From: a virus
Lineage: Duplodnaviria > Heunggongvirae > Uroviricota > Caudoviricetes
IMG/VR virus record: IMGVR_UViG_2698536533_000006
Reading direction: 5' to 3' (one strand)
Length of the DNA: 32,602 nucleotides
The notes under the pieces were generated by a model. The model saw only the letters and a list, made by a program, of their open reading frames with translations, did no database searches and was not told the DNA's origin. Shown one piece after another: positions 3,684-21,331 of this stretch. How positions within the stretch are numbered: position 1 is the first letter of the stretch; each line of letters begins with the position of its first letter. The position numbers were made by a program, and so were the translations under genes.

Positions 3684-3988
3684 AATAAAAAAATAACCCG
3701 AGGGGTGACTCAGGTTATTTGAGGTTTCAGTCTCNNNNNNNNNNNNNNNNNNNNNNNNNNNNNNNNNNNNNNNNNNNNNNNNNNNNNNNNNNNNNNNNNN
3801 NNNNNNNNNNNNNNNNNNNNNNNNNNNNNNNNNNNNNNNNNNNNNNNNNNNNNNNNNNNNNNNNNNNNNNNNNNNNNNNNNNNNNNNNNNNNNNNNNNNN
3901 NNNNNNNNNNNNNNNNNNNNNNNNNNNNNNNNNNNNNNNNNNNNNNNNNNNNNNNNNNNNNNNNNNNNNNNNNNNNNNNNNNNNNNNN

Positions 3989-4705: not shown

Positions 4706-4929
4706 TTATGGCGGTATTTAATATTCCTGATATTTACGGACGCTTTTACCTGGTTAATTTCGATAACGTGAAGGTGATTTCACTGGCCGAAAATAAAGAA
4801 TGTGGCGATTTACTTTTTGAATTTAATGACCGCACACGAATGGTGATATCTGCCGGACTTGATCGCGAAGGTGCGACAGAAGTTTACAGCGGAATATGCC
4901 GTTCTGTTGGTGCGAAACAAGTCAGCTAA
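4702..4929 (+). CDS. Small early protein (75 aa), in the position of Mu kil
   Basis: ATG overlaps the B stop (ATGA); no recognisable motif. The kil assignment is by position only. Confidence 0.45.
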   Translation: MIMAVFNIPDIYGRFYLVNFDNVKVISLAENKECGDLLFEFNDRTRMVISAGLDREGATEVYSGICRSVGAKQVS

Positions 4930-4941
4930 ATGAGGTGTTAT

Positions 4942-5196
4942 ATGAATATGCAATCCTGCGGTAACAAAATGAATTTATTCGACTCCCTGAACAGCGCGCG
5001 CCGTCTGACCGAACTTGCCGGTGCGGTACTGGAACGCAGTAAGCGCTATCCGCAACGTTTTGCACTGAAAACCACGCCGCCGGTAGGCAACGTGCAGGGA
5101 ACCGGTGAAATTGAAATCACCATACAGACCAACGGCCTGCGCCGCCGTGTGAAGGCCACCCGCATCAGCGGCTGCACGGTTTACTGGGAGGTGTGA
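4942..5196 (+). CDS. Small early hypothetical protein
   Basis: ORF with GAGGTG RBS 4 nt upstream of the ATG at 4942 (the in-frame ATG at 4930 is an alternative); translationally coupled to neighbours. Confidence 0.45.
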   Translation: MNMQSCGNKMNLFDSLNSARRLTELAGAVLERSKRYPQRFALKTTPPVGNVQGTGEIEITIQTNGLRRRVKATRISGCTVYWEV

Positions 5197-6733: not shown

Positions 6734-6914
6734 ATGATTGATGCAAAAGTGCTTGAAGGGGTTAAAAACTGGCTGTGTATTTATGGCCGCCTGACCTGCG
6801 GTGTACTGGCTGAAAAAATGAATATGCCGCCATCCTCCATGGTTTATTTTCTGCGTGATGCGGTTGATGCAGGCGTGCTGACGGAATGTAACGGTTTTTA
6901 TGATATTCCGCGTC
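6734..6914 (+). CDS. Hypothetical protein, N-terminal part (runs into N run 6915-7209)
   Basis: ORF beginning MIDAKVLEGVKNWL... with RBS GGTGGGGAAA; the C-terminus is not visible. Confidence 0.4.
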
Positions 6915-7238
6915 NNNNNNNNNNNNNNNNNNNNNNNNNNNNNNNNNNNNNNNNNNNNNNNNNNNNNNNNNNNNNNNNNNNNNNNNNNNNNNNNNNNNNN
7001 NNNNNNNNNNNNNNNNNNNNNNNNNNNNNNNNNNNNNNNNNNNNNNNNNNNNNNNNNNNNNNNNNNNNNNNNNNNNNNNNNNNNNNNNNNNNNNNNNNNN
7101 NNNNNNNNNNNNNNNNNNNNNNNNNNNNNNNNNNNNNNNNNNNNNNNNNNNNNNNNNNNNNNNNNNNNNNNNNNNNNNNNNNNNNNNNNNNNNNNNNNNN
7201 NNNNNNNNNCTGCCGGGATATCTGCGGAGGTGGCGTAA

Positions 7239-7753
7239 TGTTCTTTAAAACATCAAACCCTTCCGCGCTGGCTGCGTGGCAAAAATACCAGCAGGACTGC
7301 CAGAAAGTTAAGGATGAGGCAAAACGCCTTGAGGCCGTGCTGAATGTTGCGTGCCGGTCGGTATTTGTATCCGGTATCAGTGGATTTTACTTTAAGGGAC
7401 TGCGTTTTACGGAGGACAAATATCCTTTTCATCGCGACTTATGGCGAAAACCGACTGCGTCGAATGGCTGGAGCTGCACACCGCGCACATCACGTATCCC
7501 TAAAACCCTGCGTGTTGCCTCTGATGAACTGAACAGTCTGTGGCGTGAATATTCGCCCGTCACGTATGCCAGAACCGATGCGCTGTTGTTCTGGTTGGGT
7601 ATTGATTTCTCGGCAATCCTGTTTGGCCCTGTGAAGTGGTTCTGCGTTGACGATGTGATTTACCTTCAGTGCGGCGTAAAACCCGCAAAACAGAAAATGA
7701 CCGAAATACTGTCTGATGAGTTTTATGCTGCTGAAAAGCGAGTCAGGGGGTGA
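7239..7753 (+). CDS. Hypothetical early protein (171 aa)
   Basis: ATG at 7239 preceded by GGAGGTGG; an upstream frame ends with TAA at 7236-7238 (TAATG coupling). Confidence 0.5.
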
Positions 7754-7756
7754 TGC

Positions 7757-8308
7757 ATGATGAAATTACAACCCATGGGACTAAAAGGTCGCGCCCCCGC
7801 TCATGTCCGTCCGTGGACACCTGAAGAAGATGCGCTGCTGATTGCGCTTTATTCATCCACCCCGGTTAAGGATATTGCTGCCAGAATAAAAAGAACTGTC
7901 TGGGCTGTATATAACCGGACTGGTGTATTGCGCAGTTCATACCCGGAGTTACTGAAATATAAACACCCAAGATTTACACCTGATGAAGATAAGTTTATTC
8001 GAAAAAATGCCAGAACAATGACCTGCCAGCAAATGGGAGAATATCTCGGACGTAATAAAGATTCTGTCAGATGTCGGGCAGGAATGATTGGTGCTGGATT
8101 AACAAAGTGCGGAGAGTTACGCCCCGGCACGCGCATATCTGATGATGATGTACGTCTTATACGTGAGCTGCGTGATTCCGATTACCCACGCCGTCTGTCA
8201 TTCCGGGAAATTGGCGAAAAGTTTGGAATATCTGAACATTCTGCTCACGCAGTTTATTACCGTCGCCGGACTGCCGAGGACGCTGTATTACGGGAGTTAA
8301 CGCCATGA
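7757..8308 (+). CDS. Hypothetical DNA-binding protein with three internal HTH-like repeats
   Basis: 183 aa with three similar segments: WTPEEDALLIALY..., FTPDEDKFIRKNA..., ISDDDVRLIRELR...; lower GC than the phage average. Confidence 0.5.
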   Translation: MMKLQPMGLKGRAPAHVRPWTPEEDALLIALYSSTPVKDIAARIKRTVWAVYNRTGVLRSSYPELLKYKHPRFTPDEDKFIRKNARTMTCQQMGEYLGRNKDSVRCRAGMIGAGLTKCGELRPGTRISDDDVRLIRELRDSDYPRRLSFREIGEKFGISEHSAHAVYYRRRTAEDAVLRELTP

Positions 8309-8637
8309 TAACGACCTTATTTGTTGAATCAGATGAACCTCTTGTGTGTGCCGCCGGAATGCCGCTCTGTGGCGGAACGCTGACCGGCGTTTATTTCGGG
8401 GATTTGCGCGGTTATCCCTGGCATTCACTGGATGACGCATTTCCGCCTGATATGGAGGCTGTCGTGCTGATTGTTCAGTATGGTGACCAACAGGAACTGC
8501 GCATCGGCCATATGGGGTATGAAGGCTTTTTTATTGATGAAGAAACCGGAGCCTGCCTTGAAGATGAGGACGGACAGGTGACGCACTGGTGCCATCTTTC
8601 GGCCTTGCCGGAATTACAGGGGATACATAATGGATGA
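8305..8637 (+). CDS. Hypothetical phage protein, DUF551-like C-terminus
   Basis: 110 aa; C-terminal VTHWCHLSALPE resembles the DUF551 signature as I recall it. Confidence 0.5.
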   Translation: MITTLFVESDEPLVCAAGMPLCGGTLTGVYFGDLRGYPWHSLDDAFPPDMEAVVLIVQYGDQQELRIGHMGYEGFFIDEETGACLEDEDGQVTHWCHLSALPELQGIHNG

Positions 8638-8773
8638 GCAAATTGTTGAATGTCCCACCTGTGGAAATGAGGACCCGGAGTATCTGAAAGAGTGCCCACA
8701 TTGTGGTGAGATAAAATGTAACCACTGCGATATGGGCGACGACACTGCATGTATAAATTGTGAGGATGAATAA
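8630..8773 (+). CDS. Zinc-ribbon micro-protein (47 aa, four CxxC motifs); absent from the ORF track
   Basis: My translation: MDEQIVECPTCGNEDPEYLKECPHCGEIKCNHCDMGDDTACINCEDE; CAGGGG about 7 nt upstream of the ATG; stop TAA at 8771-8773. Confidence 0.45.
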   Translation: MDEQIVECPTCGNEDPEYLKECPHCGEIKCNHCDMGDDTACINCEDE

Positions 8774-8774
8774 T

Positions 8775-9062
8775 ATGGAAAAAGAAATCAAATTTGCGCC
8801 TAAATCTATCGACGAAGAACTGGCTAAAATCGGCATGCTTGAACGTATGCGGGACATTATCGAATATGCGATAAAAGAAAATCTTGCAGCCAGAGAAGCC
8901 CTTTTGATAATGGAGCGGGAGATTAACCTGATTAAGGATGCTGTATCTCTGGATAATAAAATAGCCCGCGAGGAATACGTTCGCCGTAGGCTCGGTGTTG
9001 ATGGTTCAGCAATTCTTACATCTGAACATTATGCAAAAATTTTTAATCTTTTTCAGCGGTAA
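8775..9062 (+). CDS. Hypothetical protein (96 aa) in a low-GC segment
   Basis: ATG at 8775 two nt after the zinc-ribbon stop; protein MEKEIKFAPKSIDEELAKIG...; local GC is visibly lower than the flanking phage genes. Confidence 0.5.
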   Translation: MEKEIKFAPKSIDEELAKIGMLERMRDIIEYAIKENLAAREALLIMEREINLIKDAVSLDNKIAREEYVRRRLGVDGSAILTSEHYAKIFNLFQR

Positions 9063-9282
9063 TCCCCATACAGGCCCGGAGATTGTCGAAATGCCAGTCG
9101 GTATTAATATATGAGCCATCCTGGATATCTTCTGCATTTTCCGGGGTAGAGTTTTTTTGAGCGAGATTGATAATATGTATTGCCTCCTCACGGGAAATCA
9201 GCCCCTTATCGAACAGGGTTACCATAAGATTTCCAGCCATTGTGAATGCGGCAACATCAAGTGCATTTTTTATATCTGACAT
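9043..9282 (-). CDS. Hypothetical protein (79 aa), convergent with the early operon
   Basis: Minus-strand ORF with RBS AAGGAAAAA 5 nt upstream of its ATG; 3' end overlaps the 8775..9062 gene by 20 nt; low GC. Confidence 0.45.
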   Translation of the reverse strand: MSDIKNALDVAAFTMAGNLMVTLFDKGLISREEAIHIINLAQKNSTPENAEDIQDGSYINTDWHFDNLRACMGITAEKD

Positions 9283-9310: not shown

Positions 9311-9338
9311 GGCGGTGCGGTAACACCGCCCATTTTTT
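9311..9338 (+). terminator. Rho-independent terminator-like hairpin upstream of the GemA-like gene
   Basis: GGCGGTG (9311-9317), loop CGGTAA, CACCGCC (9324-9330), then CATTTTTTAT. Confidence 0.45.
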
Positions 9339-16504: not shown

Positions 16505-17832
16505 TTTAGGTTATGCCGCCACGCTTCCCTCAAAAGAGACGGTGGCATACTTCCGCGCCAAAGGGGCGCATATCAGCTGGAACTGGTTCGAAACAGACGC
16601 GGATGTTCATGCCCGCTCATTCACGGCAGCAAAAACGGCACGGCTGGATGTGGTAACCACATTACAGGCCGAAGTGCAGCGGGCCATTGATGAGGGGATT
16701 TCACAGAAAGAATTTATCCGCACACTGACGCCACGCCTGCAAAAGCTGGGATGGTGGGGAAAGCAGATTGTGGTGGACAGCGACGGTAACGCGGAAGAAG
16801 TGCAGCAGGGCAGTCCCCGTCGTCTGGCGCTGATTTACAACGTGAACACCCGTGTGGCTTACAATGCCGGGCGTTACACGCAGATGATGAACAACACGGA
16901 CACGCATCCGTTCTGGCAGTATGTGGCGGTCATGGACAGCCGTACCCGCCNNNNNNNNNNNNNNNNNNNNNNNNNNNNNNNNNNNNNNNNNNNNNNNNNN
17001 NNNNNNNNNNNNNNNNNNNNNNNNNNNNNNNNNNNNNNNNNNNNNNNNNNNNNNNNNNNNNNNNNNNNNNNNNNNNNNNNNNNNNNNNNNNNNNNNNNNN
17101 NNNNNNNNNNNNNNNNNNNNNNNNNNNNNNNNNNNNNNNNNNNNNNNNNNNNNNNNNNNNNNNNNNNNNNNNNNNNNNNNNNNNNNNNNNNNNNNNNNNN
17201 NNNNNGGCGCCAGAACCATGACACCGGATGTGGGCTGGTCATATAACCCCGGCTCGGCAGCGTTCGGCACAGACCAGGCGCTGATCCGCAAACTGATCGA
17301 GGTGAAAAGCCCGGCGTTACGGGAAATGGTGGTTCAGGAGATGAACAACAGCCCGGAGCGGCAGCTGGCGTTCCGCATCTGGGCAAAAAACATCATGCAG
17401 ACCCGGCGAGGTGGTAACGATATCCGCACGCTGGGCTTTATGACTGAAAGCATTGCGCAGGCAGTGGAAAGCCGGACGGGAACGCCACCGGCCCGCCTGC
17501 TGGCGATGAGCGGTAAAAATGTGCTCCATGCGGACAGTGTGAAACATCAGAATGACGGCATCGCTCTGACGCCGGAGGACTTCGGGCGCTTACCGGCAAT
17601 GCTGGCAAGGCCAAAAGCGGTACTGTGGGACAAACGGCACAACAATCTGATGTATATCGTGGAAAATCAGGATGGCAGTGTGCAGATTGCCGTTAATGCA
17701 CCGTACAGTCTGAAACGTCAGCCCGACAAACTGGATGTGATTGTGAATGCTTACCGGGTTATCAATATGGATAAGCTGAAATCGGATATCCGGGGCGGAA
17801 TGCTTGAGGTGCTGGAAGGACAAATTGATTAA
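16488..17832 (+). CDS. Head morphogenesis protein (Mu F / gp30-like), interrupted by N run 16951-17205
   Basis: Open frames on both sides of the gap with combined size near Mu gp30. Frame continuity across the gap cannot be verified. Confidence 0.6.
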
Positions 17833-21058: not shown

Positions 21059-21331
21059 NNNNNNNNNNNNNNNNNNNNNNNNNNNNNNNNNNNNNNNNNN
21101 NNNNNNNNNNNNNNNNNNNNNNNNNNNNNNNNNNNNNNNNNNNNNNNNNNNNNNNNNNNNNNNNNNNNNNNNNNNNNNNNNNNNNNNNNNNNNNNNNNNN
21201 NNNNNNNNNNNNNNNNNNNNNNNNNNNNNNNNNNNNNNNNNNNNNNNNNNNNNNNNNNNNNNNNNNNNNNNNNNNNNNNNNNNNNNNNNNNNNNNNNNNN
21301 NNNNNNNNNNNNNNNNNNNNNNNNNNNNNNN

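Follow-up and report, generated by a model that had tools for sequence, protein, structure and literature searches.

An acidic eight-cysteine micro-protein of an Escherichia coli Mu-like prophage: assignment to Mu gp13/E14 and a candidate role in host-protein binding

The IMG/VR record IMGVR_UViG_2698536533_000006 comprises 32,602 nucleotides (nt) of DNA from a virus of the class Caudoviricetes, and this whole stretch is referred to here as the window. Judged from its sequence, the window is an Escherichia coli Mu-like prophage. Open reading frames (ORFs) flanking the locus of interest match Gam, GemA, Mor and lysozyme of Mu. Farther to the right lie genes for packaging and heads of Mu type (gp27, TerL and portal), and several E. 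coli chromosomes contain a Mu-like prophage with 100% identity to the DNA at 8305-9062. The locus of interest is a micro-ORF at 8630..8773 (+), stop codon included, whose 47 codons run from an ATG at 8630 to a TAA at 8771-8773 and specify MDEQIVECPTCGNEDPEYLKECPHCGEIKCNHCDMGDDTACINCEDE; these are exactly the coordinates and translation of the original prediction. Lying on the early (+) strand, the micro-ORF falls between gam and gemA, with translational coupling on both sides. The upstream gene (8305..8637, +; WP_000633432.1) encodes a weakly DUF551-like protein of 110 amino acids (aa) belonging to PHROG 6925, and the end of this gene, including its stop codon, overlaps the start of the micro-ORF by 8 nt (8630-8637: ATGGATGA). 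The downstream gene (8775..9062, +; WP_000409993.1) encodes the 95-aa Mu gp14 homolog of PHROG 6075, with its ATG at 8775, 1 nt past the micro-ORF TAA. The earlier description of a gene wedged between two coupled neighbors was accurate. ATG 8630 is the earliest start available downstream of the in-frame stop, and 6 nt 5′ of it stands the Shine-Dalgarno (SD)-like sequence AGGGGA (8618-8623, +), a putative ribosome-binding site that agrees with the plausible one proposed previously.

The 47-aa protein consists of three parts. Leader codons 1-6 (MDEQIV; 8630..8647, +) lie outside the conserved module and belong to the upstream cassette, as discussed below. The eight-cysteine module spans C8 to C44 (8651..8761, +) in the arrangement CxxC-x10-CxxC-x4-CxxC-x7-CxxC, with pairs C8/C11, C22/C25, C30/C33 and C41/C44, for which two Zn(Cys)4 sites are predicted; it includes a near-invariant K29 and the loop C33-D-M-G-D-D38. 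After C44, direct translation gives a short acidic tail, E-D-E (8762..8770, +). Four CxxC pairs in 47 residues followed by an acidic tail is what the original prediction had described. This density of CxxC motifs exceeds chance: the six frames of the window contain 606 open stretches of 30 aa or longer, of which only the micro-ORF has more than two in any 47-aa span, and four were reached in one of 200 mononucleotide shuffles of the window. Cysteine makes up 17% of the protein, and 14 acidic residues face two basic ones (two lysines and no arginine), giving a net charge of -12 and an isoelectric point of 4.05.

The micro-ORF has counterparts in known phages. Over residues 7-47, searches with tblastn gave 88% identity to sequences of Mu, D108, SfMu and the Mu-like phages of Yersinia, the match to Mu itself having 87.8% identity and E=7e-17. 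In the Mu record NC_000929, the matching gene is Mup13, annotated as 'gp13; previously called E14', a 60-aa hypothetical protein between gp12 and gp14 (E14/Mup13; NP_050617.1; UniProt GP13_BPMU, 'Uncharacterized protein gp13'). The profile of PHROG 5584 is matched at E=3.1e-26, with residues 7-47 aligned to profile positions 20-60 of 60, and the C-terminal end of PHROG 6418 matches at E=2e-20; both families are listed as 'unknown function'. All eight cysteines are common to Mu gp13 and the 47-aa protein, and the latter displays the eight-cysteine pattern, the lysine before the third pair, the CDMGDD loop and the C-terminal module position of PHROG 5584. The placement is also orthologous: both genes lie on the early strand in the gam-gemA interval of the SEE region, termed semi-essential in Mu (PMC4553209), with gp14 or its homolog 1 nt later, so that the earlier assignment to a phage early region holds. 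The two loci differ in length and surroundings. Mu gp13 has 60 aa instead of 47, its 19-residue N-terminal leader MENNKTSYSWLGKFTTVKQ being swapped for MDEQIV, and the window has two genes (7757-8308 and 8305-8637; SANT/Myb-like and DUF551-like) added between gp12 and the module gene. On this sequence and positional evidence, the micro-ORF is the short-form ortholog of Mu gp13/E14.

The gene is consequently not novel, because it is Mu gp13, which has been annotated as far back as the M64097 and NC_000929 records; the suggestion of a new or overlooked gene does not survive this identification. Its identity is already known, and with this ancestry established it counts as an ordinary 'hypothetical protein'. 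The description 'uncalled' is right for RefSeq, where the Prokaryotic Genome Annotation Pipeline (PGAP) annotates the 60-aa form but, in three alleles checked, not the 47-aa form, and wrong for public databases at large, where the exact 47-aa sequence is present (BCA72774.1; UniRef A0A8B4CAA8_SHISO, 'Mu prophage protein') and found on at least 1000 contigs. PGAP also skips a 63-aa Mu-type allele (locus L024). The RefSeq annotation gap therefore comprises the short-form alleles checked and this 63-aa allele, and a profile of the eight-cysteine module would recover the gene.

Sequence evolution at the locus was examined in twelve distinct orthologous DNA versions over a 40-codon core. Between the window and Mu, 15.5 of 21.7 synonymous sites differ (pS, the proportion of synonymous sites that differ, 0.72), compared with 6.5 of 98.3 non-synonymous sites (pN 0.066). 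Across the twelve versions, mean pN/pS of the micro-ORF frame is 0.09, and variable sites at codon positions 1, 2 and 3 number 6, 6 and 29. The remaining frames have pN/pS of 1.8-3.2; the exception, at 0.20, is the expected antisense shadow frame, in which the window has six stops. These values point to strong purifying selection on the micro-ORF and bear out the claim of a genuine protein-coding gene. Two long ORFs nevertheless overlie it on the opposite strand, at 8531-8857 (-) and 8475-8750 (-), encoding 108 and 91 aa, and the old Mu record M64097 lists a similar antisense 'putative E-82'. Together with the omission of the micro-ORF by PGAP, they could suggest that it is a chance ORF or that one of the antisense ORFs is the real gene. 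Against this, pN/pS in the antisense frames is 1.98 and 2.81 as opposed to 0.09 in the forward frame, several orthologues break the antisense frames with 2-5 stops, and homologues of the module occur in more than 180 protein clusters. The antisense ORFs are ruled out as real genes by these values and stops; the chance-ORF or antisense explanation counts as refuted, with negligible probability left to it. Judged by its substitution pattern, 8630-8773 is a real, translated early accessory gene.

The boundaries of homology reveal how the short form is assembled. DNA homology to Mu (Mu 7528-7875) starts at 8648, that is at codon 7, the residue preceding the first cysteine, and extends into the gp14 homolog. 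About 130 E. coli genomes have other sequence in place of the micro-ORF after the upstream gene, and in both genomes examined the replacement encodes an unrelated 103-aa hydrophobic protein (PHROG 17269) instead of the zinc gene. These two replacement loci, at 1826-2137 of the stretches from E. coli CP55_Sichuan and M3 (L115 and L116), are equivalent to the window from 8630 onward. The first 14 nt and the five codons MDEQI are common to the micro-ORF and the 103-aa gene. Since the replacement gene shares MDEQI and homology to Mu begins only at codon 7, the SD sequence, ATG and leader are attributed to the upstream cassette, and the mosaic junction is placed within codons 5-7. The micro-ORF is carried by 49 of 5426 E. 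coli genomes and the upstream gene by 144. By this pattern of carriage and replacement, the gp13 gene is a swappable, dispensable cassette.

The module defines a broad family with the pattern C-x2-CG-x(9-31)-CP-x-C-x4-C-x2-CDMGDD-x2-C-x2-C followed by an acidic tail, found in more than 180 protein clusters. An exhaustive profile search returned 157 cluster representatives at E <=1e-3, and a word-indexed search returned 117 proteins, none of which carries a functional name. In an alignment of 111 sequences selected with a hidden Markov model, C11, C22, C25, C30, C33, D34, G36, C41 and C44 are invariant, and conservation is 90% or higher at C8, G12, P23, K29, M35, D37 and D38. Hence seven cysteines are invariant and C8 nearly so among 111 homologues, and the reading frame is under selection, both of which the original prediction had expected of a real gene. 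A larger set of 183 module-bearing proteins was picked by a regular expression demanding eight cysteines, for which reason cysteine conservation is to be read from the 111-sequence alignment; the larger set serves to describe spacing and charge. Pairs 2 and 3 are separated by four residues in 183 of 183 proteins and pairs 3 and 4 by seven in 182 of 183, while the spacer between pairs 1 and 2 alone is variable (9-31 residues). In 97%, no more than 15 residues separate the module from the C-terminus. The stretch of six residues past the last cysteine is net acidic in 97%, and the modules themselves are net negative in 96%.

Approximately 80% of members stand alone at 80 aa or less, and the others carry the module behind unrelated N-terminal domains. 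These include a ProQ_C-like domain (26.6 bits against a cut-off of 27), winged-helix-like domains and N-termini without any family match. Natural in-frame fusions of Mu gp12 to gp13, 231-234 aa in length and present in at least three diverged versions, constitute PHROG 6418; their C-terminal module is identical, whereas in the window the module stands alone with gp12 some 0.9 kb upstream. Such fusions were seen in the E. coli proteins P0265, P0272 and P0278, and could be functional or decay products of the 14-nt overlap of the two genes. The rigid spacing and recurrent C-terminal position, with the homology boundary at codon 7, show the functional unit to be the C-terminal cysteine module of about 40 residues. 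A cluster that groups the 47-aa protein with 110-aa proteins is an artefact: the 110-aa proteins are the upstream DUF551-like product, and no fusion is involved. In a Mu-like prophage of Salmonella enterica subsp. salamae (L005/L006, ~4706-5180), the annotated gp13 homolog has 59 aa, but its frame is open for about 300 nt more upstream, over an unannotated gap. The resulting 157-aa reading starts directly after the preceding gene, its N-terminus matches PHROGs 60, 660 and 3323, and it may be an under-called fusion form. Two metagenomic proteins depart from the pattern. P0009 has VPPVEMR in place of the family CPTCGNE, and because VPPVEMR is what this DNA encodes when read in the +1 frame, it is regarded as a compensated frameshift or sequencing artefact. 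P0073 joins a SANT/Myb-like N-terminus to the last two cysteine pairs of the module, apparently via a deletion.

The original prediction called the protein a zinc ribbon, a label that is not established. No family in the Pfam, NCBIfam and PADLOC libraries matches the module at threshold. Among Pfam zinc ribbons (Zn_ribbon_LapB, DZR, Zn_Ribbon_1, Zn_ribbon_3 and others), the best score of the 47-aa protein is 16.8 bits against a cut-off of 25.7, and the best match of the remaining 110 members, for which E-values only are available, is 6.1e-05 to Zn_Ribbon_1. Structure prediction with AlphaFold2 (AF2) was unusable with a 10-sequence alignment (predicted local distance difference test, pLDDT, 59) and improved with the 111 sequences to a pLDDT of 84.2 and a predicted template modeling score of 0.60. 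In the latter model, residues 19-21 and 28-30 form a beta-hairpin, with the CPHC knuckle at its turn. A Foldseek search with this model gave nothing significant; its list is led by FYVE and PHD fingers at E >=0.25, and the best of these non-significant neighbors are cross-braced RIM, FYVE and PHD fingers rather than ribbons. A fold search against BFVD gave no matches, and sequence and profile searches of the PDB gave sub-significant cysteine-pattern matches only. A sequence match to the EEA1 FYVE domain (E ~0.2-0.4) and a weak match to Prok-RING_2 were also seen.

FYVE, RIM/rabphilin, PHD, RING and prokaryotic RING-like fingers resemble the module in having four cysteine pairs, a four-residue spacer between pairs 2 and 3, and a hairpin carrying the second knuckle. 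They differ from it in that the module is far shorter (37 residues from first to last cysteine), acidic, without the basic lipid-binding motifs of FYVE and without any significant match to them. FYVE domains are recognized by the signature motifs WxxD, R(R/K)HHCR and RVC; in the 47-aa protein LKECPHCG replaces the basic RRHHCR, and WxxD is absent. Because of the four-residue spacer and the hairpin geometry, a cross-braced pairing of ligands (1+3/2+4) is tentatively preferred to a sequential one (1+2/3+4), and overall the AF2 model looks most like a cross-braced binuclear finger.

Members of the family are found mainly in transposable phages of Beta- and Gammaproteobacteria. The module was located at 73 IMG/VR loci. 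At 40 of them, all in enterobacterial Mu-likes, the gene occupies the Gam...GemA slot as in the window; in diverged Mu-likes it directly follows Gam, and in some it lies between gp27 and TerL or just past portal. No Mu markers were detected at about 25 of these loci. A Burkholderiales Mu-like subfamily (L010 6001-6174 and L095; also L089 and L092) has an insert of 20-30 residues between cysteine pairs 1 and 2 and sits in the late region, in the interval between gp27 and the large terminase or past portal. Outside the Mu-like group, carriers of the module gene include a lambdoid-like phage that also encodes a Q-like antiterminator and a DnaQ-like exonuclease; a prophage with an integrase, where it lies immediately 5′ of an exonuclease; Klebsiella phage Kpn BU9, where it lies 5′ of a different, non-homologous exonuclease; and a small element of marine Gammaproteobacteria, in which an operon running divergently from a repressor-like gene has it in second place. 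A conserved module-exonuclease gene pair was considered and dropped, as the two exonucleases are not homologous. Species representatives of GTDB were scanned with a degenerate DNA motif, and the strict motif KCxxCDMGDD was found in 15 of them, all Beta- or Gammaproteobacteria. Clustering of neighboring ORFs across 23 module groups revealed no recurrent partner apart from GemA, portal, Mor and Gam.

A working explanation can be offered for what such a protein might do. The gp13 module would fold around two structural Zn(Cys)4 centres, and the domain could then act as a zinc-stabilised protein-binding head that docks on a basic surface of another protein. Its extreme acidity (-12, with the CDMGDD loop and tail) makes nucleic-acid binding unlikely and binding to a basic protein surface likely, and the domain is too small for catalysis to be likely. 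The partner would probably be a DNA-binding surface on a conserved host protein met during early lytic growth, which docked gp13 might block or redirect; in the fused versions, a variable N-terminal domain might be tethered to the same target. A host target is favored because the module resembles a moron in its gain, loss and relocation and is appended to many N-terminal domains. The host-inhibitor idea put forward with the original prediction is a plausible hypothesis that fits the acidity, small size, accessory status and modularity of the protein; host-protein binding, plausible from these sequence properties, is the least secure step of the explanation. That the target serves host takeover or anti-defence is proposed tentatively, with confidence somewhat short of even. 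Small acidic inhibitors of host DNA-binding proteins are known in T7 (Ocr and Gp2) and T4 (Arn), none of which uses zinc. Being early, small and strongly negative like gp13, they may serve as models for the mechanism, whereas in sequence and fold they bear no relationship to it.

Several observations weigh against this explanation. Searches of the literature and of homologues found no paper, experiment or characterised homolog bearing on gp13/E14 function, and the two structural Zn(Cys)4 sites are predicted from cysteine conservation alone. The C4 finger of RadA matches the first half of the module at E=0.03 with the same x2/x10/x2 spacing, and a RadA-like N-terminal half would favor sequential over cross-braced topology. 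The corresponding module half, CPTCGNEDPEYLKECPHCG, is spaced C-x2-C-x10-C-x2-C like CQNCGYNSPKYLGRCPNCG of the RadA/Sms N-terminal finger, with several non-cysteine residues shared; the RadA/Sms and L32/L40e fingers cover just half of the module, and the KCxxCDMGDDxxCxxC half is without counterpart in them. The gp12-gp13 fusions and the subfamily adjacent to portal and terminase genes could point to a phage partner instead of a host one. Lastly, acidity speaks against nucleic-acid binding yet singles out no target.

In the main alternative, the module would be a subunit or regulatory partner of phage early machinery, working for example with gp12 and neighboring SEE proteins in 'arm'/'cim'-type support of replication or transposition. 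The recurrent gp12-gp13 fusions of PHROG 6418 suggest such a link, as do the overlap of gp13 with gp12 in Mu, the association with transposable phages across the 23 module groups, where recurrent neighbors are limited to GemA, portal, Mor and Gam, and the subfamily between gp27 and TerL or past portal. The fusions could, however, be simple indels in the 14-nt gene overlap, two genes intervene between gp12 and the module in the window, the module also occurs in non-Mu phages without gp12, and it has no strictly conserved adjacent partner; a role in phage machinery is considered unlikely. A restriction-alleviation protein of the Lar/Ral type, or another anti-defence protein directed at a host nuclease system, would suit an early, accessory and acidic product, the acidity being shared with known DNA-mimic inhibitors such as Ocr, ArdA and Arn. 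Lar/RalR is also a small cysteine-rich protein of a prophage early operon with a CP[FH]CG knuckle, 32 of the 111 members give weak matches to Pfam Lar_restr_allev (best E=0.006), a weak TIGR03655 match is seen, and exonuclease genes adjoin the module gene in two unrelated phages. All Lar matches are nonetheless below the gathering threshold (11-17 bits against 28.6; for the 47-aa protein, 11.3 bits with PF14354 and 12 bits against 39.6 with TIGR03655), hhalign against RalR aligns 11 columns covering the CPxCG knuckle only (probability 30%), and Lar has a single Cys4 site where the module has two. The exonucleases are mutually non-homologous, no PADLOC-DB entry matches the 47-aa protein at E <=1, and RalR is now annotated as a DNase toxin. 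Membership in Lar is rejected, the recurrent weak matches reflecting the CPxCG knuckle alone, and an anti-nuclease function of this type is judged improbable.

Two further possibilities concern what the cysteines themselves might be for. Binding of DNA or RNA is common among small Cys4 ribbons, and the weak resemblance to RadA, L32 and L40e fingers, along with the winged-helix-like or ProQ_C-like N-terminal domains of some fusions, would be compatible with a zinc-finger regulator acting on transcription or translation of the early operon. Such a regulator is very improbable given the charge of -12 with two lysines and no arginine, the net negative charge of 96% of modules, and a conserved surface loop that reads DMGDD. 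The high cysteine content and very small size could instead be those of a metal- or redox-handling peptide, for example a zinc buffer, a metallothionein-like protein or a thiol switch. This idea retains scarcely any credence, since rigid spacers and the conserved G12, P23, K29, D34, G36, D37 and D38 imply a defined fold with a conserved surface, and the module is attached as a C-terminal domain to diverse proteins. The preferred explanation, a zinc-stabilised head that binds a host protein, can also be extended to the whole family. In this extension, the module would be the founder of a widespread, so far unrecognized family of acidic zinc 'warheads' that neutralize one conserved host DNA-binding or defence protein, a doubtful though conceivable proposal; that transposable and other temperate phages of Proteobacteria deploy it, alone or fused, is held to be doubtful in the same degree.

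The genes between gam and gemA are functionally blank even though Mu is a classic model phage. Among them, gp13 is the most sharply motif-conserved, with eight cysteines and DMGDD maintained in more than 180 clusters that no Pfam family represents. Acidic, found in fusions, and gained and lost like a cassette, it is a well-defined candidate that could be tested cheaply in screens for host factors or anti-defence activity. If the warhead proposal were true, the semi-essential region of Mu would gain a mechanistically defined host-takeover or anti-defence function.

Some additional features of the window and of related loci were recorded. At 7757-8308, the window encodes a SANT/Myb-like or helix-turn-helix protein assigned to PHROG 323, 'transcriptional regulator, D5-like'. 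A 79-aa gene at 9043-9282 (-), PHROG 32893, is annotated by PGAP and resembles Mu gp15 in position. The antisense gene, like the gp14-like gene, is absent from the replacement loci L115 and L116, and in E. coli 2012EL-2448 (L014, 1406 onward) an IS1A element lies just 3′ of the antisense gene, at the gemA position, and this prophage is probably a defective copy. Parts of the window are masked by N, in five runs of 128-295 bases at 1330-1457, 3735-3988, 6915-7209, 16951-17205 and 21059-21331, and one of them lies inside the gp11/gp12-like ORF 6734-7753, producing a long run of X in its translation. Among the related loci, an 83-kb viral contig (IMGVR_UViG_3300012078_000004; L075/L076) carries the module gene twice, in opposite orientation and about 26 kb apart, an arrangement that either an inverted duplication or an artefact of assembly could explain. 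The Rac prophage of E. coli K-12 offers a positional analogue: ydaE (L114 6839-7009, -), annotated as a 56-aa 'zinc-binding protein', lies between racC and kilR, upstream of recE, and is likewise a small zinc-binding protein of an early operon. A relationship to YdaE was rejected, as hhalign finds none and its cysteine pattern, C-x4-C...C-x3-C, differs. Just 5′ of gemA, at 9311-9330 (+), the window contains a strong terminator-like hairpin, GGCGGTG...CACCGCC, followed by a run of T.

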